Source: a virus. Taken from it: a stretch of 36,522 nt of DNA. The DNA lies in the UHGV virus genome UHGV-0118448; one strand, given 5' to 3'. Numbering within the stretch: position 1 is the first letter of the stretch; the number at the start of each line of letters is the position of its first letter. The position numbers and the translations under genes are program-made. Of the stretch, positions 3,336-30,379 are shown one piece after another. Under the pieces are notes generated by a model that was not told where the DNA came from, searched no databases, and saw nothing but the letters and a program-made list of their open reading frames with translations.

Positions 3336-3526
3336 GGGCGCAATCCTATTAGATTGACTCGATAAAGAAGAGAATGGAGTTAATGCTACAAATGACGCTA
3401 TTGATTTGAAAAATGATCTTCTGTTCATTTAAGACACTCTTTAAGCATGACATTTGGTAGTAATGTAAGAAAAAATTACAATCAACTCCATAGCTATTTA
3501 ATTTTTAAAAGTGATTCACACCTGCA

Positions 3527-7252: not shown

Positions 7253-7261
7253 GATTACCCC

Positions 7262-7954
7262 TTAAAACAACGAGCCAAGCAATCCGATACCAGCACCAAT
7301 GCCAGCGCCCCAAGGTGTTGATGTTCCCAAAAGGCTGGCAAGACCTGCACCGGCAATCGCACCAGACGTTCCGCCACTAATTGCTGTCTGAAGACTTGAT
7401 GGTTTGTTGGCATTAGCAGCGGCAAGAGCTGCGCTTTGCTGTGCAATGCTGCTCATGTTGTTGGCGTACGTCTGCCCGGCGTTTGCCTGACCTTGCAGAG
7501 CACCAAGCCCAACGTTTGCCAGATTGTTGTAATTGCTCATCTGGTTTGATAACCAAGACTGACCGAGAGTCGGCGCGATCGTAGCCAGTTGATTGCTTGT
7601 GGCTGTCGAACCAAGTCCTCCCGTAGCCTCCGCAGCAGCAAGACTCTGGTAACGAGCCTGACCTGCAAGGTCTTTATACTGCAGAGAGTTGTAATACTGA
7701 TTAAGTGCCTGCCCCTGACCTTCTAAACTGGAAAGGTTCTGAAGCTGGTTAACATACTGCTCCGCAAGAGGCGTGAACGGAGCAAGGTTTTTCATGATCG
7801 TCTGCCACTGCTGATTTTGCAGGTCTGCGGCATACTTCTGAGCTTCTGCTGCATACTTTGCGCTTTTATCAGAGCTACCACCTTTCCCGCCTTTTTCATG
7901 GCACCAAGGTTCCTCGCCGCGCAGTTTTCTGCCCAGCTTAAATGCATATAACAT
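7262..7954 (-). CDS. Ejection protein (P22 gp7-like)
   Basis: 230 aa, N-terminus MLYAFKLGRKLRGEEP and Gly/Ala-rich C-terminus as in P22 gp7; synteny. Confidence 0.75.
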   Translation of the reverse strand: MLYAFKLGRKLRGEEPWCHEKGGKGGSSDKSAKYAAEAQKYAADLQNQQWQTIMKNLAPFTPLAEQYVNQLQNLSSLEGQGQALNQYYNSLQYKDLAGQARYQSLAAAEATGGLGSTATSNQLATIAPTLGQSWLSNQMSNYNNLANVGLGALQGQANAGQTYANNMSSIAQQSAALAAANANKPSSLQTAISGGTSGAIAGAGLASLLGTSTPWGAGIGAGIGLLGSLF

Positions 7955-7956
7955 GG

Positions 7957-8412
7957 CTATCTCCCGTGATTCAGGAAGTCGATTAGTTCTTCGCGTGTGG
8001 CGCTGTAAAAAGTCACGTCATCCACGCCTTTGAAGTATTTCTTGATGGTTCCTACACGCTTAAGGCCAATCATTGCGCAGTACATCTGACCGTGGCGGAA
8101 TTTGCGTGCGGCGAACGATGTGACGCACTGAACGGTGGTGTTAGTCAGAATGTATCGCCAGAACGCCAGCCCGATTTCCTTGCTGAAGCCGCGAATCTCT
8201 GGCAGGTACATGGCGTGGCAATCGAATGTCAGCGGCTGAATCTCCTGATAGTAAACAATTCCGCCGAACTGACCGTGCACGTTCACCTCAAAGTAACGGC
8301 ATTCAGGTTTGTAGTCGTATCCATCGCCGTTGTTGCTCCCGGCGATAATGTCAGGGTGATTTCCGACTGCTTCTATCAGGTCGATGTTTCGCGTTGGTTT
8401 GAATGTAATCAT
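7957..8412 (-). CDS. Head completion / tail accessory protein (P22 gp14 position)
   Basis: Synteny between tail needle and ejection proteins; 151 aa. Confidence 0.55.
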   Translation of the reverse strand: MITFKPTRNIDLIEAVGNHPDIIAGSNNGDGYDYKPECRYFEVNVHGQFGGIVYYQEIQPLTFDCHAMYLPEIRGFSKEIGLAFWRYILTNTTVQCVTSFAARKFRHGQMYCAMIGLKRVGTIKKYFKGVDDVTFYSATREELIDFLNHGR

Positions 8413-9113
8413 CAGTCAATCAGCCCATGTAATCTAAGTGCCGTTTCAAGCGCCAGAATACGCTGCCGCGCCTGCTGCAAACCTGTAGCGAGAGCTGCGA
8501 CTTCGGATTGTGTGTACGTAGTGCCGACAGTGTATGACTGGTTAGCGTTGAATGAGCCAAGAAGTGGCGTACCTGTGGCTGCAGTCCATCCGGTATTTCT
8601 TGCTCCAACAACCTGAATTCCATCAACTGAATATGATGTTTTTACATCCAGCGGTGACGCAAGAGACTGCGATTCGGTTACGGTTTTCGATACGTAATCA
8701 CTCTTAATGCCAGAGACATCGTTTTCTACGTCATCCAACCTTTGGTCAACAGTGACCAGATGCGCCTGAATATCGATAACCTCATCCAGCAAGTAATCAA
8801 CATCGCTACGTAGTACGACTATCTTCCCTTCGGCGGTTGTTAACCTGACCTCAAGGAGATTTATCGCTTTTGTGTTTGCGGTGATTCTTGCATCGTGATC
8901 TGCCAGTTCGACGTCCTGTTCATCGTTTTTCACCTGAGCATCGTAAGCGCCCTGACCAGCCTGATTTGCCTTCCCGGCAATTGCGCCGACATCAGCCCCC
9001 TGATTAATGACATACAGCAGGTAAGACTGGCTGAATATATTGCGTGGAAGGATTGATGTATCGAGCCGCGTCGCCTGAACAATAACCGGTGTGTTGAGAT
9101 TCGAATCAGCCAT
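8412..9113 (-). CDS. Tail needle protein (P22 gp26-like)
   Basis: 233 aa; N-terminus [50 protein letters not shown] and C-terminus [21 protein letters not shown] match P22 gp26 pattern. Confidence 0.85.
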
Positions 9114-10531
9114 TACTCAATCCTTATCTGGCAGCCTGACAGAGTGACAGGTGACTTCGTGATAACGCGCAATTTGAAGCCGACATTTTTCCTGATGCGC
9201 CCGACTCGCTTCCACAAAACGCGTTTGTCGTAAACGAACGGTTCATTCTGCTCAATCATCTGCTCACGTCCGTAATTGATTCCGTCAGTGGTTGCAGAAA
9301 GGAACAGGCGGTCGGCGTACTGCGCAACGCCAGTTGACGATTCAACCTCAAGGTCGAACACTCTGGCGTTATCTGCTTTGAACAGCGGAGTAAACAGAAG
9401 ATGTTCCTGTTGCTTGTCGTACTGGCTGCTGATGTCGAATTGCAATTTCCCGGTCACGGACTCCAGCTTATCGCCGCACGTTATCTGATTTCCTTCGTAA
9501 ATGAAGTCAATAGCGCGGTACACATCGTCATATAAGCCTGTTTTCAGCACACACCATTGTGGGCCATTGGCGCTTGAAGATGCGTCGTACACGAGGACGT
9601 GGCGCGGAAGGTGGATAATCAGCAACTCATGAGCATCAAATCGCAGCGATTCCATTACACCATCAGCCAGTTCATTAGCAGTGTAGGAGCGTAGTATTTT
9701 CTCAATGCTCGCGCTGGCGATTGGTGACACCTGCCCGGAGCCGATGATGTATACAGACGGCGCACCTGTTGCCGGATTGCTGATGAACGCATAGGAATCA
9801 GCAAACGGCGTTTTGCAGTAAGTTCCGGCGATGCCTTTTTGCACCATCAGCGATGGCTGCGCGACATACAAAGCAGCACCAACGGTAGTTGCGCCTGTCA
9901 GGGAGAAATATTCAATCGTCGATGAACCAAAGCAGACGATGAAGTCTCGCCATGTACCTATGCCGATGATGCCGTCCGGCTGCGATTCTGCGCGATATTG
10001 TGCGCTGTAACGGTCAGGATGCGATTCGTCTTCAAGGTCAGTGATAAACCATGAATCAGTTCCGTCTTTTGACCACGCATAACGCCCACGTAAGCGCGTA
10101 ATGTCGCGAACTGAACCTAACTCGTACTGTGTGAATCCGCTGTCTGTAGGCCAGTTTGAGACGGTTTTAACCGTGCCATCATAGCGATACTCGACCAGTT
10201 GACCATTAACGCCTACCGCCTGTGATGTTCGACCATGCGCCATTGATACGCGACCACTTCCGGCAACATCACCAACCTCGCTTTCGCCCTTATACAGCTT
10301 GCCACCACACACGCGATAAACAGCATTCTGCGCCATGTTGTACTCGACGCCTCGCGATACGCCGTTCACATCAGAACGTTTGGCAATGCCCGGGAATGAG
10401 CGAAGATATCCGCTGCTGTTGAGGATTTCTTTGGGTGTAGCCAACATATTCACTGGTAGATAGTCGATATAGTCAGCGTTTCTAAAGTCTTTGCCGACAC
10501 CTTTCATAAGCGGAAGTTGCTGAATCGGCAT
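9113..10531 (-). CDS. Tail hub / head completion protein (P22 gp10-like)
   Basis: 472 aa, same length and position as P22 gp10; start codon overlaps upstream stop. Confidence 0.8.
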
Positions 10532-11008
10532 TATTCGCTCCCATTATCGCAAGGTTCCTTTCGGTGGAAGTAATTCCAACCGTTCCACTTCGCCAACTGG
10601 TTTCCACTGCCAACAGGCATACGGTTTGGATAACCGGACTTACATTTAGCGGCTTTTGCTCTGTCCATTGCAGACAGTTTGACGAGTCGCTCTTTCCCGT
10701 ATCTGGCAGTGGTTATAAGTTTTGCTGACGCTTCCAGCGCATAATCCGGAGCAATGCGGCAGGCAAGGTTGAAAATGACGGCATTGATAGCGTTATTTGA
10801 TAAACCGTGCTCATCGCCCGGATCCGGAGCGACATCTGCATCAGCAAAAATGTAGCCAACGTTGATCCCAGGTGACGCATCACCGCCAAGCCATTCAGCC
10901 ATCATCATTTCAAGGTCGTTGACGCCGTCTTCCATAGACTGCGGTTCGACATCAGTTAACGTGGCATTTGATGCCACACCGAGCTTACGTAATGCCGCAA
11001 GGACTAAA

Positions 11009-11031
<23 letters not shown>
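10531..11031 (-). CDS. Head-tail adaptor (P22 gp4-like), start at internal Met [10 protein letters not shown]
   Basis: [33 protein letters not shown] matches P22 gp4 N-terminus; the longer ORF-track start runs through a hexanucleotide repeat giving an SQSQSQ artefact. Confidence 0.8.
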
Positions 11032-11263
<232 letters not shown>

Positions 11264-11275
11264 GCTTGTCTCCAG

Positions 11276-11299
11276 ATAAAAAAGGGAGCCGAAGCTCCC
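11276..11299 (-). terminator. Intrinsic terminator immediately downstream of coat gene
   Basis: On minus strand: GGGAGC-TTCG-GCTCCC hairpin followed by TTTTTTAT, directly after the coat stop codon. Confidence 0.7.
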
Positions 11300-11307
11300 T
11301 CTGGTTA

Positions 11308-12603
11308 TCACGCGGTCTGGTTAGGCAGACCAACACCAATTGCCTCTGGTCGTACAGCACATGCTGAATACCACACAGCAATACGGCACTTGCCAGACAG
11401 AGTGTTGATATCCCCCTGCGTTGCGAAGATGCCGTTAACACCAATACCAGGAATGCTGAAGGAAGAAGTTTTCATGCCAGCAAACAGTTCATGGGTTACC
11501 GGAATCGGCTGAGACAGCAGGCGGATTGAGTCATCAGCCCAGAACACGTTAGCGGTGGTTGTTGCCACGTTCAGAACGTTTACCGGAGTGGTATCAGCAA
11601 GAGAGGTGTTTACGTTAGCGTAAGCCTTCTCTTCTTTTGTCAGTGACGCGTCATCCAGCGCAATCGGCTTCGGCGTGATTTCGATGTGAGTACTATCGAT
11701 CACACGGGTGATTGAGAAAGTCGCGTCATCAGTCAGCACATTCTTCGCCATCTGAGACAGGAACTTCACACCAGTGAAGCTGATTTTGTCGCCGCGCTTA
11801 AATCCGGTGGTGGAGGATACGGTCACCGTTGCAACACGGTTGTCGACGTTCTCTTTGTTACCATCGGTATCAAGGGTGTATGCCTGCGGCTTAAACTTCT
11901 GCGCACCAGACACAGTTACACCAGTAGCGGTTGACTTGGTAACTGCCGGAAGTTTCGGTGAGCGAAGAATTTCATCAAAGCCAGCAATCTGACGCTGAAT
12001 AGTACCGTTGCGATACGCTTCTTCAGGAACGCGCCCGAAGATGTCACCATCTACAAGATTGCGGCCTGCTTTGCGGTAATCGTCAGGGTTCAGGAAGTAA
12101 CTGATGCCCATATCGCGGTTTAGCTCACGGGAGAACATCAGGCGCTCTGCATCAGACACAAAATCCCAGCCAGACAGGCCAGTAGATGGACCAATTGCGC
12201 GGGTATCGTGAACAACAAGTGAGCCCATTTCAGTTGCCTGTTTGGCAATTGCTGACTCAATGTTATTCGCCAGTTTTTTGGCGGATGCCTGGATGCGGCG
12301 ACGGTAAGAACGCTCATCACGCAGGTCATCTGCACGAAGCTCGAAGAAATCGTTATCCGGATCGCCCATGTTGCATTTCACGGACAGTTCCAGAATACCG
12401 GTAGCGTTGCCAGTTAAATCCCAGCCAGTCTGAGTTGGCGCTTCCTGCTCAACAGGCATCCACACGGTGTTGCTTGAACGTTGCATGGATTCTGCCGGAG
12501 GGGTGTATTTTGTCACTTTGGACGCCATTGGCGTCAGGTTCTGGACGGTTTCGATGATTTCATCCAGAGCATACGTGACCAGTTGACCTTCATTTAATGC
12601 CAT
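11308..12603 (-). CDS. Major coat protein (P22 gp5-like)
   Basis: 431 aa; [54 protein letters not shown] and C-terminal [14 protein letters not shown] closely resemble P22 coat protein. Confidence 0.95.
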
Positions 12604-13514
12604 TATCGAATTCCTTTATTCAGTTGCGCCTTGAGCTTGCGGTATGTCTCTACATCCCCTTTGTTTGCTGCCGCTTCCATCTGCTTTTCAATCGCAGATA
12701 TATTTGCAGCAACAGCGTGTCCCTGAATGGGTTCATCAGGTAGCGGGGCTTCTGAAACAGGTTTGGCTCGAGGCTTGAGAGTTAAACGTTCTGACAGTCG
12801 AGTGAGTTCAATCAGCGCGGATTGCCCGTCCATCGCCAGCAACTGGCGTGTTTTCTCAGGATTAGCACCAAGGTGATACATGAGAGCGGCGGATTTCTCC
12901 GGGAAGAGGCGCATGATGTCGGCACCGACTGCTGGCGGCACCAGTTGCATGAATGCATCCTCTTTCTCCTGATAGTCAGGGATATTGAGCTTTTCCGCTG
13001 CGTCGTAGTGCTTACGGGCTGCCTCGACGTATTGCGCTGATTGCTGGGTGAACTCCTGAGTTTTGCGACCCTGCTCAGCGACAGCCTGGCTTCGTGCGTC
13101 CATAGCCTTGATCTGCCATTCACTGTTTGCCTGCTGGAAGGCAGCCAGTGCGCGGCTCTGGTCATAGTCGTACTTAGCCAGCGCATCTTCGGAAAGATAA
13201 TCGTTAGGGTCTGGTTGTTTTGGTAACTCAGGGTTCACCCGCAGGTGCTCCGGCAACTCTCCACGCTTAACCGCTTCCATCTGCTGCTCAAGCTCACGCT
13301 GGCGTTTGCGTTCGATGCGGCGACGGGCAAATTCAGCATTAGTTGCCGGGTCTTGTTTTGGTTTCTCATCGTCTTTCAGGACAATCTCGAAGCCTTCTTC
13401 CTGACCTGCGTTGTCGTTGGCATTATCGACAACTAAGCCATCAGCAGATGCCGCTGCATGATTGCCGAGCAGGGTTAATTCTTCAGAAGCCTGAATGTCG
13501 GTGGTTTGGTCCAT
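12603..13514 (-). CDS. Scaffolding protein (P22 gp8-like)
   Basis: 303 aa, matching P22 gp8 length and sequence pattern ([13 protein letters not shown]..., C-terminal ...[15 protein letters not shown]). Confidence 0.9.
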
Positions 13515-13527
13515 GATTAACTCTCTC

Positions 13528-15693
13528 TTATTGAGGTGTCTCGGCTACTCCGCCGGAGGGGATTTGAACTTGACGCATAAGATTCGCGAAATCCATGCGT
13601 TGTGAATGAGTCTGGTCTGCATCTTTAAGAAGCAGCTCAGCGTTAGCACGAGCATCTTTGCTGCGCTGTTGCTGGAATTGACCTACGAGCTTGAGGTACT
13701 CACGCAGTTCTGCCTGCTTGTCGAGGTCCATATTGTTGAAGATTTCTGCAATCTTCGCGGCGTTGAGTTGGTTTTGGGCTTCAACCTTGGCAGCTTCAAC
13801 CTGAATCTGCGCCTGTTGGTTCTCTGCCTTGAGCAATTCAGCCTGACCTTGCAGAAGGATACCCTGCGCCTGAATTTGCTCTGCTGATGGCTGCTGCGGC
13901 TGTTGTTGTGCCTGCTGTACCATCTCCATCTCTTCAGGTGTTTCTGGTTTCTTCAGCCCCATCATCACCAGTTGCTTGTTCGCGTACTCTCGCATCATCT
14001 CAACGCCTTTACCGTCAAGCAGCGTGAAGTATTGCAGCATCAGCATCTGGAACTCTGGAGTACCTTGCGGAACCTTGGTGAGTAACTCCTGAATCTCTGC
14101 GCGGTTCTGTTCCTTCATGCTCTGGAAGGATGGCCCAACGTCTGTATAGCACTCATAGCGACCGCGAATGTCGTTGAGTGTGACCACATTACCGGACTGG
14201 TAATCTACAACTTGCGCGTAGAGTTGAACGTCTTTCTCGCTACCATCTTCAAGTGTCAGCGTTACATGACGAGGAACGTCATAAATATCGTTGACCATTG
14301 AGGCATAAATCTCGCCATCACGTCGCATTGCGGTAGCCAGGTTATCCTGAAACACGTATGTCTCAAGGTCTGCCCGCATGTTCAGTTGATTGACGGTATC
14401 GAAAGCGACCTGAGAGTTTGCCGCCTGCGCATCCACGCCAAGACTAGCCACCTCTTTCACTGCGTTGGTGGCAGCCTCAAGCATGTAAGCGTTGGCCTGC
14501 GGTACTTCAGGGTTTTCCATGTAGGAGATTGGACCAATCGGCAGGTCGTTACCGTTTTCATCGGTCCTGTTCTGCAGATAGTACGGATAGTCATCATTTC
14601 CACCGTACATGTATTCGTAGCCTTCGATTTGCTCAGGGAAGAAGGTCGGTTTCTTCTTCGGTGAACGAGCAACAATATCGGCGTTGAACGACATGATCAT
14701 GTTACGAAGGCGTTGACCGTCTTTCGTCAGCCTTACCACTCCCTCGTAGCACTCCTTGTCACCAGCGAATGACCATTCTCCATACACTGGAACGATTGGG
14801 ATATGCTCTCCGGCTATCTTTTCTCGGTCTTTCAGTATCTGCGTGCAGGTGATGATCGACTTATACACACGACGACGCTTCACCTTGCGCTCTGCTACCT
14901 TAATGAATCCACGATTAGCCAGGTCGTCGATAACGTCTTTAATATCCTGCTGGTAATAGCTGACTGGCTCACCTGTCAACGGGTCGCGGTAGATGAAGAC
15001 TTTCTCCTTCTTCTCTTCTACCTCGTAATACTCAGCGACGTAGACGACATCATTCGATACCCACGGAAACAGCCATGTGTCGTTCGGATTCTGGAAAGAT
15101 GGCAAGGTGTCCGGATCAATACCGTAATCCTCTGCGAACTCTTTCCAGCCATTGCGTGACAAAGCGTTAATCACCGTGCAGTGCTTAGCGTCGCTCTTAT
15201 CCATCTGCTTGCTGTTGGCGTCCCATATGACGTGTGAGCAGGCCTCATGGATTGGCAGGCGTCTGATTACCTGATTGTTGCTTGTTGGGTCGTTGTCTTC
15301 GTACTGGGTGACCAGACGCCATGCACCAACGCCGGACTCTATCTGCTCACGAACGCCAACGTTAACGGCAATCTTTGCCGTGTTATGGCGCATATCAGTA
15401 CGATACATTCCCATCAACACATCGGCAGCATCAGGATTAGCGCCGTCTTTGGGTCGGAAGAGAACGTCGATAGGGTTCCGGCGCATCTCTGCGACCAGTT
15501 TCCTGACCACCGGGCGAACAACATCGAATTGTCCGCGATATTGCAGGGTAGTGTAGTTTGATAGCCAGTCATCCCATTGCGACACTCGGCTAAAATACAG
15601 GTCATTTGTCGCCTCGGTTCTGGCTTCATCGCTCGCCATCCAGTCCGCGTCAAACTTACACAGAATGGAAATGAGTCTGTTTTCGTCGGCCAT
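13528..15693 (-). CDS. Portal protein (P22 gp1-like)
   Basis: 721 aa; conserved P22 portal blocks ([29 protein letters not shown]..., ...FNNMDLDKQ...). Confidence 0.95.
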
Positions 15694-17193
15694 TTAAGTT
15701 CTCCGTGCGATGGGCCTGATTGGGGCTGGTATCTTTTTCTCTTTTGGTTTTTTGATGTCGCGCATCATTTTTGCGAAGCGGCGCATCATGTATGCATAGC
15801 GAACGGCTGATAGCACGTCGTCGTTAAGCTTGACGATCTTCCCGTTTTCATCACGGTGATAGAGGCGAAACTCCTCAAAGAATGGCTCACAGGTGTTGAA
15901 TACTTTGAAGCGACCATCGAGCATCATGTCGCGCAATTCAGTGATGCCAGGCTCCACCGCGTTACCGCCATCAGGCCATGTCGCATGCTCCTGCAACATC
16001 ATAAAACCAGCATCTGCATACTGCCCTTTGAGCTGCTCACCGCCGCCCTTCTCGTGCTGGTTTCCGTCATGAGGCCATGCTGTTGGCACTTTATGCGCCC
16101 ATGATTTAACAGCTCCCCATGCCTGAACGGCTGTTTTTTCTTTCGCCTTCCACACGCGTGAAACGTAGATTGTGTCTGCGTCCTTATCCCACCAAAGCTG
16201 AACCTGCGCCTGTGGGTGATCCCATCCGAAATCCATCCCGCCAATTACGTAGAAGTGATCAGGACACTCGAACGGCTGACACTTAATCGTCTCTTCCGGT
16301 ATCTGGAAGATTCGACCACTACCCATCGTAGGAATACCGCGAGCACGCGCCTCTCTCTCATGCTCTGGATAGGATGCGATGATTTGCTCTTTCTGCTCGT
16401 CGGTATAGTGCTCAGCGTCATAGATGGTCATGTTGACCACTTTCTGCGACTTGCTGGGATTCTTCAGGAACTTGGTAACAACGTCAGACATCCCCATCAG
16501 CGGGGTAAACGTCAGAATTGAGAATTGCCCGTATTTGTTGGTACGGGTAAGACCTTCGCCATAAATGCTGTATGGTGGCTCTTCGTCAAACCACACGCCG
16601 TGGATTGTGTCACCCTGCCAGCGAGCACGGCCTTGCGAGTATGGTTTGAAGTAGCAGATTGAAATGCCATCTTCAACGCCATCAGCCGTGTGATGCTTAA
16701 CCAGAAGATGATCAACAAGGTTCGGAAAGAAAGGAGACTTCTTCCAGCTAATGATGTCTTCTTTCGGTATGGAACCGTAGCCTGGCTCGTCATTCTCTTC
16801 GATACGACCGCACAGGATGCGTTGAGTCGTTTTGGTTACCGTCTCGTTTGTCTCGCCACCAATCCAGAAGACAACAGGCTCATAGAAACGCTTACCTTTC
16901 CACTCACCGCCATATTTACCATCAGCAGGATAGCCTTTTGTGCCCGGATAACGCCCTGTAAGGTGAAACGCGACTTCGGCAGCACCGGTAAATGACTTAC
17001 CAAGCTGGTTACCAGCCATAAAACAGCGCTCTGGATAGTCATGCCCGGCGTCGATGAACTCACGCTGTTTGCTGTATGGCGTAAATTCATATAGCAGGTG
17101 TGTGTTCCGGTAGTTCTCTTCTTCTTCGAGTAGCTCGAGCAACTCGATTTGCTCTTCGTCGCTCAGGTTATCAAGAATCGCGTCCAGTTCCAC
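15694..17193 (-). CDS. Terminase large subunit (P22 gp2-like)
   Basis: 499 aa, same as P22 gp2; ATPase motif region GNQLGKSF; directly upstream of portal. Confidence 0.95.
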
Positions 17194-17665
17194 GGTTGAA
17201 TAGCTCCTTGATACGAGAGCGCCGCTTATCGCGATCTCCCTTATCAGGTGTCACGTCTTCAACTTGCGACTGCTCTTTGAGGCCCAAATCACGGGCGATG
17301 ATGTTAGCGTTGAGAAGGTCAGCGGCTGCGCCAGAGAATTTCTGGTCGTAGATGACCTGCTCTGCTCGCGTAACGACTTCAGATAAATCTTCTCGCAGGC
17401 GATATGTGCGCCATGTTTCAAGCGTCACATCAATGAACAGAGTGAGTCCGGTAATAGTCATCGCTCGCATCTTGGCGATAGGCTCTTGTATCACTTCACC
17501 CTGATACGAGAATGCCTTCATCTCCCATAGCGGGTTAGCTTCTACCCACTCGAAGTATTCACAACAAGCAGCCCACAGCGCCTCAGGCGATTCGAATTTC
17601 GGGTTTCGCCCATGACTACTGCGGGCCTCCCAAAATCGGTTGCCCTTTGGTGCCGCCATATTCAT
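17171..17665 (-). CDS. Terminase small subunit (P22 gp3-like)
   Basis: [29 protein letters not shown]... typical TerS N-terminus; overlaps TerL start. Confidence 0.85.
17371..17392 (-). promoter_or_regulatory. Candidate pac site inside terS
   Basis: Minus strand reads GAAGATTTATCTGAAGTCGTTA (encoding ...EDLSEVVT...), which closely resembles the 22-bp P22 pac site as I recall it. Confidence 0.45.
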
Positions 17666-17863
17666 CTCACTTATTTGTTATTTCAGGCTGATGACTCTTT
17701 CGCGCTTTCAATCAGTGACTGCTTCAGCAATTCGAGTGTGCCAATCGCCTCGCATAAACTGATTTCACCATCGTAATCATGGATGACGCTTTCAAGCCGC
17801 TCGTATAGCTCTTGAGTAATTGGGAATTTCTTCTCCTTACCCAAATTGATTACGCGGCTCACA

Positions 17864-18106
17864 TCATGCTCCGGTAGTGAACAGGTCTAACGCTTCCTTC
17901 GATTTACGCACCGCTTCGATAGTGCGGGTCGTGATATCTGAATTAGCGCCGCCTGACTGGAAGTGAATTTTGAATAACTCAAGCTTCAGCTCGTCAGTGC
18001 CAATGAACTGAAATGCTTCTTCTGCGGCTGCGTTCTGGTTCATGACCAGTTTGTAAATCTCTAACTGGAATTTCTGTTCTTCAGTCATGGGAATAATCTC
18101 TGCCAT
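17864..18106 (-). CDS. Hypothetical protein (P22 ORF80 position, upstream of terS)
   Basis: 80-aa ORF with ACGGAG Shine-Dalgarno; synteny only. Confidence 0.45.
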   Translation of the reverse strand: MAEIIPMTEEQKFQLEIYKLVMNQNAAAEEAFQFIGTDELKLELFKIHFQSGGANSDITTRTIEAVRKSKEALDLFTTGA

Positions 18107-18333
18107 TGTTGGCTCCGTTTATCCGTTAAAAGGGATATCAGTTAAGTTATCCCGTGTAGGGTATAAGCCATTGTCGAGACCACTCATTGAATGGCCTCTG
18201 CAATAACCGATGTCTTTCCATCAGTCCGCCACCACAAAGAATCTTTTTTGCCATAAGGCTGGAGGTTCATCTTTCAGTGGCTGCCAGTGTTATTTCCCCA
18301 CTTACTGGCTTGGGTTGTTTCGCTGTACTGCCG

Positions 18334-18876
18334 TTAATTGGTGAGTCCGGGGATTACGGTTTGCCCGTGCTGTTCAAGGCGTTCAATTCTCGCCAGTAGC
18401 TGAGGCTTCTTAATTTTTCCCCAGCGATTAAGCAGGCGGCCTGACATGCTGGCAACATCCTTCTCTTTCATGTACTCCAGCATTACGGCATTTCTCTCTT
18501 CTTCAAATTGACGATGACCAACCTGAAGCATGGCGTACATCCAGTTGAATGCGTTGATGTAAGCAATTTTGATACGCATTGCTTCTTTTTTGGTGTAGGA
18601 CATAACCAAAAGCATCAACCCATCCTTGCGGAGACGGTAGAATTTTTGCGGCTTACCATTCTGTAACTCATTGTTTTTATAGCAAAGCTCAAAGTTGAGC
18701 TTTGTATCAAACTCAGGAGGGCAAGCTTCTATGGTTCGTTCAATGTCACGAACCACGTTCTTCGGCAGCTTTCCAAATGCTTTTGCCACCATAAAAGAAT
18801 CTGTAACCGGATCGTTGTTTGCTACAAAAATTAGGTCTCTGAAATCTATATCGTTAACAACGGTTGGGTAGTTCAT
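18334..18876 (-). CDS. rha: Rha-family phage regulatory protein
   Basis: 180 aa; N-terminal region LIFVANNDPVTDSFMVAKAFGKLPKNVVRDIE is Rha-like; sits between lysis genes and terS as in P22. Confidence 0.75.
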   Translation of the reverse strand: MNYPTVVNDIDFRDLIFVANNDPVTDSFMVAKAFGKLPKNVVRDIERTIEACPPEFDTKLNFELCYKNNELQNGKPQKFYRLRKDGLMLLVMSYTKKEAMRIKIAYINAFNWMYAMLQVGHRQFEEERNAVMLEYMKEKDVASMSGRLLNRWGKIKKPQLLARIERLEQHGQTVIPGLTN

Positions 18877-19024
18877 TGCGTCTTTACCTTTTAGAAAGAT
18901 GAGCCTGTTCGCACAGAAAAGCCGTCCCCGAGATGGTCGCCACCATATACGGCAATTCTCAGGCTCAGCTTTCTGAAAGACTCGGGATTGTTACGCGCTG
19001 CGATGCGCGGTTTACTGCAGATGT

Positions 19025-19048
19025 AAAAAAGCCCCGCAAATGCGAGGC
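19025..19048 (-). terminator. Intrinsic terminator downstream of lysis cassette
   Basis: Minus strand GCCTCGCA-TTT-GCGGGGC hairpin followed by TTTTTTA. Confidence 0.5.
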
Positions 19049-19222
19049 TAAATCCTGGTATTTGTAATGACTGGCTCTTATCTCAACGCAGCCCCTTACC
19101 GCGCGCCAGATGCTCAATATCAAGCATCAGCAATGAGATGTTTAATCTGGATTCACTCCAGAAGTGATCATCACCCTGTCTACAGAGCCAGATGTGAAGG
19201 ATGATGAGTAAAATTATCGCTA

Positions 19223-19690
19223 TCATCGAAGGCATTGCGTCCTGATGTATTCCTGAAGCGTTCTCAGTGCTGTTTGGTCGCGGATAATTCCGTCCCGGAC
19301 ACCGAGAACGTTTCGTCCAGCAACTGGAGAGAGTTCGACGGTGGCATCATTGCCCATGCCGGAGGCGCCGGAGGTTTCGGCTGAGGATGGCACAGGGCAT
19401 TTTCCTTTGACGAGCACCCTGCCACCATTATCAAGCTTGCGCCGAAGAGCATCATTTTCAGCTTTCGCATCAGCTAACTCCTTCGTGTATTTAGCATCGA
19501 GTGCATCAGCAGCACGCTGGCGTTGCTGCATGTCAGTAATGGTGGCGGTCGCCTGCTTCAGCTCACTGACTTTTTTATCTCGCTGTTCTTTGTAGGCGAT
19601 GGCGTTATCACGGTAGTGATTAACAGCCCATGACAGGCAAACGATGATGCAGATAACCAGAGCGGAGATAATCGCGGTTACTCTGCTCAT
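19223..19690 (-). CDS. Rz: Spanin, inner-membrane subunit (Rz)
   Basis: N-terminal TM segment [23 protein letters not shown]; coiled-coil middle; follows endolysin. Confidence 0.9.
19264..19470 (-). CDS. Rz1: Spanin, outer-membrane lipoprotein subunit (Rz1), embedded in Rz in +1 frame
   Basis: [21 protein letters not shown] lipobox (VAGC) followed by Pro-rich [11 protein letters not shown], fully inside Rz. Confidence 0.8.
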
Positions 19691-20163
19691 ACCTCAATCT
19701 CTCTGACCATTCCGCCAGCTTCTTTGAATTTTGCAATCAGGTTGTCAGCCTTATGCTCGAACTGACCATAACCAGCCCCCGGCAGTGAAGCCCAGATATT
19801 GCTGCAACGGTCGATTGCCTGACGGATATCACCGCGATCAATCATCGGTAAAGCGCCACGCTCTTTAATCTGTTGCAGTGCCACAGCGTCCTGGCTTTTC
19901 GGAGAGAAGTCTTTCAGGCCAAGCTGCTTACGATAGGCATCCCACCAACGGGAAAGAAGCTGGTAGCGTCCGGCGGCTGTTGATTTGAGTTTGGGGTTTA
20001 GCGTGACAAGTTTGCGAGGGTGATCGGAGTAATCAGTTAATAGCTCTCCGCCTACAATGACGTCATAACCATGATTTCTGGTTTTCTGACGTCCGTTATC
20101 AGTTCCCTCTGACCACGCCAGCATATCGAGGAACGCCTTACGTTGATTATTGATTTCCACCAT
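19687..20163 (-). CDS. R: Endolysin (lambda R-type lytic transglycosylase)
   Basis: [39 protein letters not shown]... essentially lambda R. Confidence 0.95.
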
Positions 20164-20470
20164 CTTCTACTCCGGCTTTTTTAGCAGCGAAGCGTTTGAT
20201 AAGCGAACCAATCGAGTCAGTACCGATGTAGCCGATGAACACGCTCGTTATATAAGCGAGATTGCTACTTAGTCCGGCGAAGTCGAGAAGGTCACGAATG
20301 AACCAGGCGATAATGGCGCACATCGTTGCGTCGATTACTGTTTTTGTAAACGCACCGCCATTATATCTGCCGCGAAGGTACGCCATTGCAAACGCAAGGA
20401 TTGCCCCGATGCCTTGTTCCTTTGCCGCGAGAATGGCGGCTAACAGGTCATGTTTTTCTGGCATCTTCAT
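20147..20470 (-). CDS. S: Holin (lambda S-type, dual-start MKM)
   Basis: [41 protein letters not shown]... essentially lambda S107/S105. Confidence 0.95.
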
Positions 20471-20596
20471 GTCTTACCCCCAATAAGGGGATTTGCTCTA
20501 TTTAATTAGGAATAAGGTCGATTACTGATAGAACAAATCCAGGCTACTGTGTTTAGTAATCAGATTTGTTCGTGACCGATATGCACGGGCAAAACG

Positions 20597-20626
20597 GCAG
20601 GAGGTTGTTAGCGCGACCTCCTGCCA
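20597..20626 (-). other. Perfect 10-bp stem hairpin between tR' and holin
   Basis: ggcaggaggt-tgttagcgcg-acctcctgcc; also present at this position in lambda as I recall. Confidence 0.4.
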
Positions 20627-20866
20627 CCCGCTTTCACGAAGATCATGTGTAGAAGGCCGCAGCGTAACTATCACTGATGAATTCAGGATAGCCAGTGGCT
20701 ACGGCTCAGTTTGGGTTGTGCTGTTGCTGGGCGGCGATGACGCCTGTACGCATTTGGTGATCCGGTTCTGCTTCCGGCATTCGCTTAATTCAGCACAACG
20801 ATAAGAGCACTCGGTGCATTTAAGCCAAGCCCCATAAGGGAGAATGCTCTTACCTGTTGCACAGGT

Positions 20867-20926
20867 ATAAAAAATCCCGAAACCGTTATGCAGGCTCTAA
20901 CTATTACCTGCGAACTGTTTCGGGAT
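20867..20926 (-). terminator. tR' late terminator (end of 6S RNA)
   Basis: Minus strand TCCCGAAAC ... GTTTCGGGA hairpin followed by TTTTTTAT, about 190 nt downstream of pR'. Confidence 0.8.
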
Positions 20927-21067
20927 TGCATTTTGCAGACCTCTCAGCCTGCGATGGTTGGAGTTCCAGACGATACGTCGAAGTGACCAACTAGGCGGAA
21001 TCGGTAGTAAGCGCCGCCTCTTTTTATCTCACTACCACAACGAGCGAATTAACCCATCGTTGGGTCA

Positions 21068-21096
21068 AATTTACCCAACTTTATTCAAAAAGTCAA
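21068..21096 (-). promoter_or_regulatory. Late promoter pR' with qut region
   Basis: Minus strand TTGACT-17 nt-TAAATT just downstream of Q stop; sequence closely matches lambda pR'. Confidence 0.8.
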
Positions 21097-21138
21097 TATC
21101 ATGCCGTTAATATGTTGCCATCCGTGGCAATCATGCTG

Positions 21139-21762
21139 CTAACGTGTGACCGCATTCAAGATATTGTCTGCGATTGACTCTTCCTTGTGGCATTGCACCA
21201 CCAGAGCGTCATACAGCGGCTTAACAGTGCGTGACCAGGTGGGTTGAGTAAGGTTTGGGATTAGCATCGTTACAGCGCGATATGCGGCGCTTGCTGGCAT
21301 CCTTGAATAGCCGACACCTTTGCATCTTCCGCACTCTTTCTCAACAACTCTCCCCCACTGCTCTGTTTTTGCTATATCAACCGCGCGGCCTGTACCGTGG
21401 CAATCTCTGCATCTTGCCCCCGGCGTCGCGGCACTACGGCAATAATCCGCATAAGCGAATGTTGCGAGCACTTGCAGCACCTTTGCCTTAGTATTTCCTT
21501 CGAGCTTTGCCACACCACGGTATTTCCCCGATACCTTGTGTGCAAATTGCATCAGATAGTTGATAGCCTTTTGTTTGTCGTTCTGGCTGAGTTCATGCTT
21601 ACCGCAGAATGCAGCCATTCCGAATCCGGCTTGTGATTGCGCCATCCCCATAGCAGCCATCACATCAGTACCGGAAAGAGAGTCAGAAGCCGTGGCCCGT
21701 GGTGAGTCGCTCATCATCGGGCTTTTTGGCGAATGAAATTTAGCTACGCTTTCGAGTCTCAT
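21139..21762 (-). CDS. Q: Late antiterminator Q (lambda-type)
   Basis: 207 aa, [31 protein letters not shown]... essentially lambda Q with zinc-finger Cys cluster. Confidence 0.95.
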
Positions 21763-22424
21763 GCGCCTTCTCCCTGTACCTGAATCAATGTGAGGTTTCC
21801 GCAGAACACTGCGCCGGTATCGATATACATCTGGTTGGCAAACTTGAGTGGTTTCACTGCTGGCGTATGACCAAAGATGAACATGTCCGCGCCTTTGATT
21901 TCTTTCACGATCCCGTCTTGTGAGTTGCTGATTCGTTCGCGGTTCCAGATTACCTGCTGATGATCAACTGGCTTTCCAAACTCGTATTCGTCACAAGGAT
22001 AATCGGCGTGGCAGATGACATATTTTTTATCTTTGCTCACCAGTTCGATGATTAACGGAAGTTCTTCTGCTTTATGGGCAAGAGCTTTAGCCAGAATTTC
22101 TTTGTCGTAATCGAGATTAAAGAACCAGCCACCGCCATTAAGCAGCCAGTGATTAACGTTTCCACGCTCTGATAAGCCATCAATCATCATTTGCTCATGG
22201 TTTCCACGTACAGCTCTGAACCAGGGGAATGTGATTAATTCCAGGCATTCGACGTTCTCTGCACCGCGATCGACCAAATCGCCAACCGAGATAAGCAGGT
22301 CTTTGTTGGTGTCGAATCCTATCGTCTCCAGTTTTTTCATCAGGTTCGTGTAGCATCCGTGCAGATCGCCAACTACCCAAATATTTCGGTATTTGCTGCC
22401 ATCAATTCTTTCGTAATAGCGCAT
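21759..22424 (-). CDS. ninI: NinI Ser/Thr protein phosphatase (start at internal Met MRYYER)
   Basis: GDLHGCY and GNHE metallophosphatase motifs; matches lambda NinI (221 aa). Confidence 0.9.
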
Positions 22425-22608
22425 CTCTTTCACTCCATCCGCGATGAACCATAAGAACGTCGTTGACGATGGCGTGCATTTTCCCGTCTTTATCATCAAC
22501 GTATTTTCTGACCGTGCCGCGACTACATTTCAGTCTGCGTGCTACTTCTGTCTGGTTTCTGTATGCTTCAACGAGCATGTCTGGAATGGTTTTTACTGAG
22601 AACGTCAT
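22402..22608 (-). CDS. ninH: NinH
   Basis: 68 aa [37 protein letters not shown], lambda NinH-like. Confidence 0.85.
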
Positions 22609-23216
22609 GCGGCCTCACTTCTGCTATTTCGCAGGTCTTTGAGTTTCTGTTGGTACTCTGCCTTGATCGCCTTGCACTCTTCGATAGTCCAGCGATGGCG
22701 GTTATGGTTTGATTCGATTTCGTCTACTGCTTCCTGCCCGATGCGGATAATCAGTTCGACGCGATACGGAACGAGATTTCCGCTTTTGTGCTGGTTGCAC
22801 ACCACACATTGCTTGTGAATATTGCGTTCATCAAATCGGAGTTGAGGTGCCGCAGCAGTTGTCCGGTAATGTCCGGCATCCCACTGAGCAGACGTGAGCG
22901 TTCCGCACGAGATACATGGTAAGTCGCGGTCTCTTTCTCTGATGAAGGCGTTTACGGCTTGTTGGGCTTGTTTAATCCAGTAACTGCGGGGCTTTAAGGC
23001 GAGTTTTCGAATCTTAAGTTTATCTTTCTGTTTCTGCTCCTCTCGTCGTCGTTTCTTCTCTGCTGCTTTTTCCGCTTTTTCGCGTTCTTTACTTCGTCGT
23101 TCGAGTGCTATCTTGGTTCCACACTCTGGAGAGCACCACCACTGATTGGCGAATGCAGGGTGAAACCATTCCCGACATTCATCGTTTTTACATCGTCTTC
23201 GCGCTGGTTTAGCCAT
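22605..23216 (-). CDS. ninG: NinG (Rap) recombination-associated protein
   Basis: 203 aa, Cys-rich, lambda NinG-like. Confidence 0.9.
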
Positions 23217-23385
23217 CGTCTTCTTCCTCGTACATTGAGCTATTCGGATCGCTCATCAGTTCTGCGCAGCAGTGCTCACACACGTGAACTTCCAGCACAT
23301 GCAGCTTCTGACCGCAGTTAGCGCACGTTAATGCCCGCTCGACGCTTTCTTTCTGGTATTGAAGGGATTGGGATGGGCTAAGCAT
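23209..23385 (-). CDS. ninF: NinF (58 aa, not in ORF track)
   Basis: Hand translation [58 protein letters not shown]; CxxC..CxxC; overlaps ninG start by 8 nt. Confidence 0.6.
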
Positions 23386-23746
23386 TATTGGCGTCCTGAA
23401 TCATGAGAAAGACAATCATGGCGGCACGGAGTGGATTGTCATATGCGACACCAACATTCGGTCCGGCATCATCAAACAAGTCCCTTGCGTTGTCTGTAGC
23501 GCACGGCATTGAGGGATTGTCTAAAATTATGCTGATGTTGTTTTCAGTGATAATCGGCCATGCGTCTGATGGTCTTTTACAGTAATCAACCGTTTTTATT
23601 GCATAACCAGTTTCGTCATCCCACTCAACACCAACGATTGATGTTCCCAACTTTGCGATTTCGCAATCTTCGGGAGCAAATCCACAGCAAATTGCCACTC
23701 GCTTGTTAATTTCAAAATCACTTAACTGTGAATAATCCATTGTCAT
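23378..23746 (-). CDS. NinX-like protein (start MTMDYSQ, ATGA-coupled to NinE stop)
   Basis: Position between ninE and ninF as in P22 nin region; start codon overlaps upstream stop. Confidence 0.5.
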
Positions 23747-23919
23747 TTCCTCGCACGATGTCTTAGCCACCGGATATCCCACAGGTGAGCCGTGTAATTG
23801 AAGGTTTTTACGTCAGATTCTTTTGGGACTGGCTTGCGTTTATTTCTGGAGCGTTTCGTTGGAAGGTATTTGCAGTTTTCGCAGATGATGTCGGTGAAAC
23901 TTCGTCGCTGTCGCCTCAT
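23743..23919 (-). CDS. ninE: NinE (58 aa, not in ORF track)
   Basis: Hand translation [58 protein letters not shown]; AGGAGGT Shine-Dalgarno 6 nt upstream. Confidence 0.6.
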
Positions 23920-24326
23920 TCGTACCTCCTGTCGGTAAATCTGACACCATGACCAATAGCCCAGGCTGTTGTGTACTCGATAAGACTTGCCATACGCTTC
24001 ACACTCATCTGCGCGCTGCTTTCGCGAATGTTGACGTATTCGCCTTCAAGCCCGGGCAAAACATCAGCTTCCTGCTTTGTTGCCACTGCATGACCGCTAA
24101 TCAACAAAACCTTCCATTGTTCCGGTTTTAACCATTTGCCGCACCATTGAACCTGACGAGCGATATCCGCCAGCATCGCGTGAAATTTTGCGTTCTGGTC
24201 AAGGTTGCGCTTGTAGTCAGTAATGCGGATGGTGACTGGCTTGTCTTTATCGAGAGGAGTTTCGAGGATGGCGTTGATTGCGGCTTGCTGTTGTTGCTTA
24301 GTTCGGAGGAAGATTGTTTGCTTCAC
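23916..24326 (-). CDS. ninB: NinB / Orf recombination mediator
   Basis: [33 protein letters not shown] pattern parallels lambda NinB. Confidence 0.8.
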
Positions 24327-27991: not shown

Positions 27992-28023
27992 GCCCTTTTT
28001 CAGGGCGGGGATGTGTAAGAGCG
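27992..28023 (-). promoter_or_regulatory. nutR (boxA CGCTCTTA, boxB GCCCTGAAAAAGGGC)
   Basis: Minus strand reads cgctcttacacatccccgccctgaaaaagggc between cro and cII. Confidence 0.8.
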
Positions 28024-29506: not shown

Positions 29507-29546
29507 TTAAGCCATCAGCAGGACGCACTAACCACCATGAAGGTGA

Positions 29547-29577
29547 TGCTCTTAAAAATTAAGCCCTGAAGAAGGGC
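29547..29577 (+). promoter_or_regulatory. nutL (boxA TGCTCTTA, boxB GCCCTGAAGAAGGGC)
   Basis: gatgctcttaaaaattaagccctgaagaagggc upstream of N; boxB identical to lambda nutL as recalled. Confidence 0.85.
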
Positions 29578-29734
29578 AGCATTCAAAGCAGAAGGCTTTG
29601 GTGTGTGTGATACGAAACGAAGCATTGGCCGGAAGTGCGAATCCGGATTAGCTGCCAATGTGCCATTGCGGGGTGTTTTCGTTCAGGACTACGACTCCCA
29701 CACACAACCAAAGCTAACTGACAGGAGAATCCAG

Positions 29735-30061
29735 ATGGATGCACAAACACGCCGCCGCGAACGTCGCGCAGAGAAACAGGCTCAATGGAAAGCAGCAAAT
29801 CCCCTGTTGGTTGGGGTAAGCGCAAAACCAGTTAACCGCCCTATTCTCTCGCTGAATCGCAAACCGAAATCACGAGTAGAAAGCGCACTGAATCCGATAG
29901 ACCTTACAGTGCTGGCTGAATACCACGAACAGATTGAAAGCAACCTGCAACGTATTGAACGCAAGAATCAGCGCACATGGTACAGCAAGCCACGTAGTGA
30001 AATGGGTGTGACTTGTGTTGGTCGCCAGAAAATGAAATTAGGCAGCAAACCACTTATTTGA
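29735..30061 (+). CDS. N: Antiterminator N (lambda-type, 107 aa from internal Met)
   Basis: MDAQTRRRERRAEKQAQWKAANPLLVGVSAKPVNRPILSLNRKPKSRVESALNPIDLTVLAEYH... essentially lambda N; Arg-rich motif. Confidence 0.9.
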   Translation: MDAQTRRRERRAEKQAQWKAANPLLVGVSAKPVNRPILSLNRKPKSRVESALNPIDLTVLAEYHEQIESNLQRIERKNQRTWYSKPRSEMGVTCVGRQKMKLGSKPLI

Positions 30062-30069
30062 GGTGAGAT

Positions 30070-30156
30070 ATGGAAGAAGAATTTGAAGAGTTCGAAGAGC
30101 ATCCTCAAGATGTGATGGAACAATACCAGGACTATCCGTATGACTACGACTATTGA
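30070..30156 (+). CDS. Possible 28-aa highly acidic peptide (MEEEFEEFEEHPQDVMEQYQDYPYDYDY)
   Basis: ATG 5 nt after AGGT; overlaps ral start by 17 nt; short, so coding status uncertain. Confidence 0.25.
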   Translation: MEEEFEEFEEHPQDVMEQYQDYPYDYDY

Positions 30157-30340
30157 TACAAATCAATGGTGTGGACAATTCAAACGATGCAATGGATGCA
30201 AGCTGCAATCGGAATGCATGGTTAAGCCTGAAGAAATGTTTCCTGTAATGGAAGATGGGAAATATGTCGATAAATGGGCAATACGAACGACGGCAATGAT
30301 TGCCAGAGAACTTGGTAAACAGAATAACAAGGCTGCCTGA
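30140..30340 (+). CDS. ral: Restriction alleviation protein Ral
   Basis: 66 aa MTTTIDTNQWCGQFKRCNGCKLQSECMVKPEEMFPVMEDGKYVDKW... essentially lambda Ral. Confidence 0.9.
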   Translation: MTTTIDTNQWCGQFKRCNGCKLQSECMVKPEEMFPVMEDGKYVDKWAIRTTAMIARELGKQNNKAA

Positions 30341-30379
30341 TGGTGGCCTTTATTTTTAGCATAAACAACAGAGGCTAAC

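Follow-up and report, generated by a model that had tools for sequence, protein, structure and literature searches.

How a late-control and lysis block that closely resembles that of phage lambda comes to stand beside the virion genes of a P22-like phage is the question raised by viral genome UHGV-0118448. The window, as the whole analysed stretch of 36,522 nucleotides is called here, was described in a first-pass annotation as a modular mosaic in which lambda Q and its qut site drive a heterologous head and tail operon. Comparison with reference genomes confirms the observation behind that description, a lambda-like block beside a P22-type virion module; the interpretation placed on it is only partly supported. 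The explanation that we favour, with a probability of about 93%, is an ordinary lambdoid mosaic, namely a P22-like phage with a widely shared lambda-type nin-Q-pR'-lysis allele as its late switch. Judged from its sequence, the window comes from a temperate podovirus of E. coli that is P22-like and belongs to the genus Lederbergvirus, and the phage is probably a prophage.

Extent and boundaries of the lambda-like block

Megablast matched window 20471-23216 to lambda (J02459/NC_001416 42432-45185, minus strand) with 97.0% identity, 100% query coverage and an E value of 0. The S, R and Rz genes (19223-20470) fall outside these coordinates, and all genes of the nin-Q-lysis block lie on the minus strand. 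In a direct blastn comparison the whole lambda-like block extends as a single HSP from window 19443 to 23351 (lambda 46213-42297), with 96.45% identity over 3917 nt; on the minus strand it runs from ninF into Rz, of which it includes the first ~82 codons. This 3.9-kb HSP contains 131 mismatches to lambda (3-3.5% divergence); codon changes comprise 44 synonymous and 17 non-synonymous substitutions, and every ORF is intact. Alignment to lambda and P22, which had been named beforehand as the check, revealed close rather than distant lambda similarity and mapped the junctions, and the lambda-like character of the block at the DNA level is borne out.

A second blastn match (93%) pairs window 23746-23930 with lambda 42263-42080, in ninE. 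The intervening 394 nt of unmatched DNA (23352-23745) represent a ninX insertion that splits the lambda-like block between ninE and ninF, as in P22, and the block is not continuous up to ninB/ninE. The right-hand end of lambda similarity does coincide with the predicted ninB/ninE boundary, at window 23930. The left junction, which had been placed between Rz and rha, lies instead inside Rz at about window 19445, approximately 10 codons into the embedded Rz1 frame. The junctions occur at sites that recur: within Rz where Rz1 starts, between genes of the nin region, and just after tR'.

Over the parts that they share with window 20471-23216, HK106, HK446, mEp234, Sf101 and IME10 are 98.1-98.5% identical by megablast, compared with 97.0% for lambda. 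Because several phages are closer than lambda over these parts, the source of the block is the pool that lambdoid phages have in common, rather than lambda. No single reference genome spans the whole 17-24 kb stretch, and at least 80% of the stretch is covered in only seven complete E. coli genomes, which indicates that this exact combination of segments is individually uncommon.

The nin genes and Q

The ninE gene (23743-23919, minus strand), which forms the right-hand end of lambda similarity, is 93% identical to lambda and 95.5% to P22 at the nucleotide level and adjoins an HK620-type ninB (23916-24326). Between ninE and ninF lies a NinX-family gene (23378-23746, minus; PF10765, E = 8e-19) that is absent from lambda and whose product is 43% identical to P22 NinX. 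The ninF product (23209-23385, minus) is 96.6% identical to P22 NinF and 81% to that of lambda, the lambda HSP stopping within the gene at 23351. Homologues of NinG, NinH and NinI follow; their order is that of lambda, and they lie between the replication genes and Q. All three are encoded on the minus strand: ninG (Rap junction endonuclease, 22605-23216; PF05766, E = 1.7e-91) and ninH (22402-22608; PF06322) each specify products 98.5% identical to lambda, and ninI (Ser/Thr phosphatase, 21759-22424; PF00149) encodes 221 amino acids from its ATG with 95.9% identity. A 246-residue NinI ORF proved to be an ORF-listing artefact of an upstream TTG, as the 221-residue form that starts at the ATG can be aligned with lambda NinI over its full length.

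The late antiterminator Q (21139-21762, minus; 207 residues; PF03589, Antiterm, E = 1.3e-57) is 99.5% identical to lambda Q and differs by the single substitution L135Q, with residue 135 in the P22 state. P22 gp23 is itself 96.1% identical to the Q of the window and 95.7% to lambda Q. A CII-type site, TTGCGAGCACTTGC (21462-21475, plus strand), lies inside Q in antisense orientation, where paQ is located in lambda (lambda 44173-44186).

Late promoter, leader RNA and terminator

The Q gene ends at 21139, directly upstream of the sigma70 late promoter pR'. The pR' and qut region (21045-21096, minus) carries a TTGACT -35 hexamer (21096-21091) and a TAAATT -10 hexamer (21073-21068) separated by 17 nt, with the Q-binding element in the spacer and +1 at 21061. 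The AACGAT element (21061-21056) is identical to that of lambda and is preceded by a -35-like hexamer, TTGACC (21068-21063), in place of the lambda TTGACT. Following the lambda literature, we take AACGAT (+1 to +6) with this preceding hexamer to be the sigma70-dependent pause element. Overall, pR'/qut differs from lambda at three bases, 21089 and 21079, both in the spacer and both P22-like, and 21063; P22 shares the -35 and -10 hexamers, the pause element and both of these spacer bases. TTGACC was considered as an unusual regulatory variant and ruled out, since the C allele is the commoner natural form in IMG/VR (95 contigs, versus 30 with T).

The 6S leader RNA (20868-21061, minus; 194 nt) matches lambda at 192 positions and differs at two. 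It ends in the tR' hairpin (20873-20927) followed by a U-run, and its predicted fold has an MFE of -67.5 and a z-score of -3.6. The tR' hairpin was left uncalled by a simple terminator scan with a loop limit of 8 nt; because its loop is too long for that scan, tR' is assigned from its fold and its identity to lambda. No Rfam match was obtained in the whole window at the gathering threshold, so that the 6S leader and the nut sites of the window match no curated family. The description of pR' and tR' as lambda-like stands, with the hexamers, the pause element and tR' all conserved. The 194-nt leader is also present in many P22-like prophages.

Just downstream of tR' is a long stem of approximately 19-20 bp (20793-20862, minus), in which the lambda sequence of the apex has been replaced over ~32 nt. 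The base of the stem is kept, whereas the apex exists in at least four interchangeable alleles or has tRNA genes in its place. The replaced patch is not unique to the window, being the majority allele (47 loci, versus 28 of lambda type). In lysogens the pR' leader, the lambda 6S RNA, is the part of the block that is made constitutively. StxS, which derives from the pR' of an Stx phage, has been shown to be a trans-acting small RNA, and according to the same report no function is known for lambda 6S RNA (PMC7547250). By analogy, the 194-nt leader could be a trans-acting small RNA with a host-directed role, and the post-tR' stem could be a functional element in RNA processing and, in addition, a point at which cargo is inserted. 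The two proposals taken jointly form a speculative reading that we regard as unlikely.

Lysis genes, rha and the virion operon

The holin/antiholin gene S (20147-20470, minus; PF05106, E = 2.4e-30) encodes a product 99.1% identical to that of lambda and carries the Met1-Lys2-Met3 dual start of a class I holin of the lambda S family. The R endolysin (19687-20163, minus), of the lambda transglycosylase type, is 96.8% identical to lambda and gave no match in the Pfam search. Identity falls at the spanins. The Rz i-spanin gene (19223-19690, minus; PF03245) is lambda-like only upstream of ~19445, and the Rz1 o-spanin gene (19264-19470, minus; PF06085) is embedded in it in another frame. At the amino acid level, identity to lambda is 61% for Rz and 41% for Rz1, and these two are not of the lambda sequence type throughout; the Rz C-terminus, Rz1 and the following spacer are HK620-type, at 97-99%. 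The proposal that the proteins of the block are essentially those of lambda holds for NinG, NinH, NinI, Q, S and R (95.9-99.5%), with Rz as the exception. The Rz-rha spacer contains a terminator-like hairpin (19030-19049, minus) with eight pairs, six of them GC, and a T-run, on the sense strand of the late operon.

Downstream lies a gene for a Rha-family regulator (18334-18876, minus; PF09669 and PF10549), which is 99% identical to Sf101 at the nucleotide level and whose C-terminal part is 93% identical to P22 ORF201. It is followed by a P22-type packaging and virion operon (1431-18106, minus), delimited by tblastn of P22 proteins, with DUF2560/ORF80, gp3, gp2, portal, scaffold, coat, gp4, gp10, gp26, gp14, gp7, gp20, gp16 and tailspike genes. 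The 13 P22 proteins from gp3-gp2-gp1-gp8-gp5-gp4-gp10 to gp26-gp14-gp7-gp20-gp16-gp9 were all matched in syntenic order on the minus strand (35-100% amino acid identity), in agreement with the P22-type virion module first proposed. For gp9 the homology is limited to the N-terminus, where the tailspike head-binding domain (PF09008, E = 3.1e-65) is 73% identical to residues 1-113 of P22 gp9. This gene content predicts a short-tailed virion. Integrase, repressor, N/nut and replication genes are also present in the window.

Operation and origin of the late switch

Binding, pausing and read-through are inferred here from established knowledge of lambda Q. By that analogy, Q would be produced at the end of the early-right operon, bind the element between the -35 and -10 hexamers of pR', and load onto RNA polymerase that has halted, just past the start site, at the sigma70-dependent pause. 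The modified polymerase would then resist terminators, passing tR' at +194 as well as internal ones such as those after Rz and after the coat gene (terminator-like sites lie at 19030-19049 and 11281-11302), and would transcribe a single minus-strand late operon of ~20 kb that comprises S, R, Rz/Rz1, rha, terminase, head, ejection and tailspike genes. In the absence of Q, transcription would yield nothing beyond the 194-nt 6S RNA. The segment was probably joined to its HK620-, Sf101- and P22-type neighbours by ordinary recombination, both homologous and illegitimate, between genes and inside Rz.

The view that lambda Q and qut drive a heterologous operon is a misreading, as P22 gp23 is of the same type as the Q of the window and the promoter elements are shared. 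Among 41 classifiable IMG/VR contigs with this pR'/qut, it is accompanied by P22-like TerL/portal packaging genes in 34 and by those of lambda in three, and genomes arranged like the window were published for HK620, Sf101, IME10 and epsilon34. Lambda-type Q has been described in P22, epsilon34 and Para1, and the qut of epsilon34 is identical to that of lambda (PMC2629481). P22 itself and most P22-like phages have lambda-type Q/qut as their native late switch, and the arrangement is no novel hybrid.

These results bear directly on the alternative that a P22-type phage recently took its late-control and lysis block straight from lambda itself, which would have placed a foreign Q/qut over a heterologous operon. 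Such an event would account for the high identity over 3.9 kb, and lambda does cover the block more fully than any other single reference. The 131 mismatches, the phages that are nearer over their shared parts, the possession of the same Q/qut type by P22 (PMC2629481), the prevalence of P22-like virion genes as the partner of pR'/qut, and the P22 state of the pR' spacer bases and of Q residue 135 all weigh against it; direct acquisition is largely refuted and appears very improbable.

Laboratories commonly hold lambda DNA, and lambda-P22 hybrids were constructed historically, which could point to an assembly chimera or an engineered hybrid. An identity of 96.5% and not ~100%, together with flanking joins that recur in independent published phages and genomes (HK620 matches at 97-99% on both sides of the Rz junction; Sf101 matches at 98.1% from Q to ninF and on into the ninX 3' end) and variants common to many wild prophages, disagrees with such an origin. 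On the grounds of divergence and shared junctions, contamination and engineering are rejected as having a negligible probability. It is scarcely more probable that the prophage is defective and the block a remnant in decay that has lost late-gene control: many E. coli prophages are defective, but here the genes from ninE to the tailspike are all full length relative to lambda or P22, the substitutions are mainly synonymous (44:17), the S dual start is intact, as are promoter, pause site and terminator, and the integrase, repressor, N/nut and replication genes are retained.

Comparison with known phages

The arrangement is already known, as ordinary and long-described lambdoid mosaicism in the P22-like phage group. 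It has little significance beyond correct annotation and adds a further case to the mosaicism set out in the HK620, Sf6, epsilon34 and Sf101 genome papers. It does bring a conceptual correction: P22-type virion operons are not a foreign setting for lambda-type Q/qut, which in public viral contigs is mostly found with them.

Lambda (NC_001416 42297-46213) shares the nin-Q-pR'-6S-tR'-S-R-Rz order at 96.5% nucleotide identity, together with the -35 and -10 hexamers, pause element, 194-nt leader, tR', paQ site and S dual start. Unlike lambda, the window has no ninC or ninD, a ninB allele unrelated in type (35% amino acid identity), an extra NinX between ninE and ninF, another Rz C-terminus/Rz1 allele, rha in place of bor, and a replaced apex in the post-tR' stem; its operon runs into podovirus virion genes and not Nu1/A. 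P22 (AF217253) shares the virion gene set and order (gp3 100%, gp2 92.8%, gp10 93.4% and gp14 92.7% amino acid identity), identical pR' hexamers and pause element, and ninX in the matching position. It differs in a shorter late leader that is unrelated after about +20, in its endolysin (gp19), in ninY/ninZ instead of ninI, in its immI region (sieA, mnt, arc, ant), and in coat and portal proteins that are only 73-77% identical.

The P22-like podovirus HK620 (AF335538; Clark et al. 2001) was annotated with lambda-like Q, pR', qut, S and R, and shares its Rz/Rz1 and spacer (97-99%) and its ninB allele with the window. In contrast to the window, it has roi-rus for ninG-ninH-ninI, a different pR'-to-S leader, a KilA-type hkbK for rha, and Sf6-type terminase, portal and coat genes. 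Shigella phage Sf101 (NC_027398) has the identical order NinE-NinX-NinF-NinG-NinH-NinI-Q-S-R-Rz/Rz1-Rha-DUF2560, with 98.1% nucleotide identity across Q to ninF and 99.1% in the rha region. It is without the lambda-type 6S/tR' leader segment (window 20642-21038 unmatched), and it carries another Rz C-terminus/Rz1 allele (window 19259-19460 unmatched) and a different NinX allele. Sf101 was described as a mosaic with this nin/Q/lysis order (PMC4159516). The closest published genome overall is that of coliphage IME10 (NC_019501), which matches 84% of the virion half at 96.5% identity, and ninG, Q, S and R at 97-100%. It departs from the window at the Rz C-terminus, in the rha region, in part of the leader (20701-20800), in its ninX allele and in part of gp3. 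HK620, Sf101 and IME10, by their annotations, and epsilon34 are all published genomes with the layout seen in the window (PMC2629481, PMC4159516).

Lambda-like late control and lysis block

Alignment to lambda confirmed at the DNA level that the late control and lysis block is lambda-like, as the first-pass annotation had proposed. Megablast gave 97.0% identity over 20471-23216 with the entire query covered, and direct blastn against the lambda genome aligned window 19443-23351 with lambda 46213-42297 as one HSP (96.45%, 3917 nt), a second HSP corresponding to ninE (23746-23930, 93%). The further statement that the proteins are essentially those of lambda holds for NinG (98.5% amino acid identity), NinH (98.5%), NinI (95.9%), Q (99.5%), S (99.1%) and R (96.8%) but not for Rz (61%) and Rz1 (41%), which are far less similar.

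All genes of the region are on the minus strand. In order of decreasing window coordinate, ninB (23916-24326), ninE (23743-23919), a NinX-family gene (23378-23746; Pfam NinX), ninF (23209-23385), ninG (22605-23216; Pfam NinG), ninH (22402-22608; Pfam NinH), ninI (21759-22424; Pfam metallophosphatase) and Q (21139-21762; Pfam Antiterm/Q) precede a 668-nt non-coding leader between Q and S. S (20147-20470; Pfam lambda-S holin), R (19687-20163), Rz (19223-19690; Pfam Rz) and the Rz1 gene embedded in Rz (19264-19470; Pfam Rz1) follow. A spacer separates Rz from rha (18334-18876; Pfam Rha), two small genes lie between rha and the packaging genes, and the tailspike gene (1431-3428) is the last of the P22-type packaging and virion genes.

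Late promoter, leader and predicted control

The sequence itself, a promoter scan and a three-way alignment spanning Q to S place the late promoter pR' (TTGACT-17 nt-TAAATT) at 21096-21068 and the start point at 21061, followed by AACGAT. The promoter and qut site differ from lambda at three bases. Two, 21089 and 21079, lie in the Q-binding spacer and are both in the P22 state; the third, 21063, is a T-to-C change in the pause-associated hexamer, TTGACC as compared to TTGACT in lambda and P22. The TTGACC allele is the commoner in IMG/VR public viral contigs (95 contigs vs 30 with the T form). The 194-nt leader departs from lambda at two positions, and its RNA fold contains the long hairpin of tR' (20873-20927) with a U-run after it.

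The functions of the pR', qut, pause and tR' elements are established from work on lambda Q and are assigned here by sequence. The window carries an intact Q gene together with the Q-binding and pause site; a strong terminator lies 194 nt beyond the late start, and the late operon is one unbroken minus-strand run of ~20 kb. Two clean, strong sense-strand terminator-like hairpins lie inside this operon, one within the Rz-rha spacer (19030-19049, minus) and one directly after the coat gene (11281-11302, minus), the position of the annotated coat terminator in Sf6 and HK620. Q would load onto RNA polymerase paused at pR', and the modified polymerase would pass tR' and the later terminator-like sites, so that lysis and virion genes would be expressed only once Q has accumulated. 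In lysogens, the short leader RNA alone would be produced.

A CII-type TTGC-N6-TTGC site (21462-21475, plus) lies antisense in Q at the lambda paQ position, and is identical in the window, lambda, P22, HK620 and IME10. Directly 3' of tR' is a stem of 19-20 bp (20793-20862, minus) whose base is kept and whose apex is swapped: among related IMG/VR loci the apex measures 32 nt (the window type, 47 loci), 40/41 nt (the lambda type, 28), 51 nt (7) or 173 nt (2), and in 26 further loci tRNA genes take its place. The apex-adjacent pair co-varies (G-C, C-G, T-A). Because the basal variants are G.U-compatible on the late-transcript strand only, an RNA structure is suggested. It may be one of the RNase III sites that have reportedly been found in the lambda late leader. 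The role of this exchangeable-apex stem, like any function of the 6S RNA (PMC7547250), is a matter of the lambda late leader generally rather than of this window.

A second lambda-like block lies at 29513-30372, with identity to lambda of 94% in the N gene and nutL and of 96% in the ral region. The lambda-type boxB is exact at both nutR (GCCCTGAAAAAGGGC; 27992-28006, minus) and nutL (GCCCTGAAGAAGGGC; 29563-29577, plus), which indicates that the specificity of early antitermination is lambda-type as well. The repressor region differs from that of lambda.

Junctions and mosaic segments

Junctions were mapped with 100-nt tiles against lambda, P22, HK620, Sf6 and IME10, and with a four-way Rz alignment. 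On the right, similarity to lambda reaches as far as the ninB/ninE boundary at 23930, where a junction had been predicted; beyond it ninB is HK620-type (97-100% nucleotide identity; 35% amino acid identity to lambda NinB). The predicted junction between Rz and rha was not found, as the left limit lies at ~19445, within Rz and ~10 codons into Rz1. Between there and ~18900 the sequence is of the HK620 type (97-99%). The rha region aligns with Sf101 at 99% identity and with CUS-3 at 98.5%; the N-terminal half of rha (18500-18900, minus), which matches these two at ~99%, is without a DNA counterpart in lambda, P22, HK620, Sf6 or IME10. The 17000-18500 segment is 94-99% identical to P22 itself. Segments of lambda, HK620, Sf101/CUS-3 and P22 type thus stand side by side, in agreement with the postulated modular mosaic.

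Within the block, lambda similarity breaks at 23351 in ninF and restarts at 23746 in ninE. The unmatched 394 nt hold the NinX-family gene, which occupies the P22 ninX position (43% amino acid identity) and whose allele (23378-23746) lacks a DNA match in lambda, P22, HK620, Sf6 and IME10. Both ninE and ninF are nearer to P22 (95.5% nucleotide identity) than to lambda (88-91%). Within Rz, ~100 nt at ~19500-19600 (minus) are 77% identical to lambda, 84% to HK620 and <60% to P22, Sf6 and IME10, with conserved segments on either side, showing fine-scale mosaicism inside one gene; the Sf6 annotation marks a "boundary sequence" in the same part of Rz.

The virion half

A tblastn search with all P22 proteins recovered the P22 virion set complete, in order and on one strand: gp3 (100% amino acid identity), gp2 (92.8%), gp1 (77%), gp8 (85%), gp5 (73%), gp4 (60%), gp10 (93%), gp26 (61%), gp14 (93%), gp7 (80%), gp20 (43%), gp16 (35%) and the gp9 head-binding domain (73%). 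As the closest published genomes are also Lederbergviruses (IME10, Dewey, APC_JM3.2, Sf6 and HK620), the designation of the virion module as P22-type is correct. ORF80 is 98.8% identical to that of P22 and lies alongside gp3, the small terminase, in 17000-18500 (minus); the 94-99% nucleotide identity of this stretch, compared to only 76-80% for the remaining virion genes, suggests that it was exchanged separately and recently and that the pac specificity is that of P22.

In the tailspike (1431-3428, minus), the P22 head-binding domain (PF09008) is joined to a carbohydrate esterase domain resembling SASA/sialate-O-acetylesterase (PF03629) where P22 has its endorhamnosidase, which suggests a receptor-deacetylating spike. 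Only ~230 nt (3335-3563) separate gp16 from the tailspike; therefore the immI region of P22 (sieA, mnt, arc, ant) is absent. The integrase gene (14-1207, plus) follows the tailspike directly, no gene for O-antigen modification intervening (14-1431).

Origin of the block and comparison with known phages

The 3.5% divergence and the P22-state variants speak against a direct and recent capture from lambda, as does the existence of closer relatives: over the shared parts, megablast places HK106, HK446, mEp234, Sf101 and IME10 nearer to the block than lambda (98.1-98.5%). The divergence of the block from lambda and the recurrence of its joins in independent genomes rule out contamination and an engineered hybrid alike. 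Nor is the block likely to be a decayed remnant. Its genes are intact, and across ninH, ninI, Q, S and R the codon changes relative to lambda are mostly synonymous (44, vs 17 non-synonymous) with no truncation, a pattern that indicates purifying selection on these five genes.

Lambda Q had been thought to drive a "heterologous" operon, a description that does not stand, because P22 has its own near-identical Q and pR' and P22-like partners are usual. An IMG/VR search with the exact pR'/qut 36-mer returned 125 loci, 41 of which reach far enough downstream for classing; their terminase/portal genes are P22-type in 21, Sf6-type in 13, lambda Nu1/A in three and other in four. P22 gp23 shares 96.1% of its amino acids with the window Q and 95.7% with lambda Q, and the P22 pR' has the same -35, -10, spacer bases and pause element as the window, diverging only past ~+20. 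The epsilon34 genome paper reports Q proteins of P22, epsilon34 and Para1 ~99% identical to lambda Q, and an epsilon34 qut identical to that of lambda (PMC2629481). In the 2001 record of HK620, Q, pR', qut, S and R are annotated as lambda-like and stand beside P22-like virion genes, and the annotated gene order of Sf101 is that of the window from ninE to the DUF2560 gene (PMC4159516). Together with the closer relatives, these likenesses indicate that the block is an allele shared widely across the lambdoid pool and that P22-like virion genes are its usual partners.
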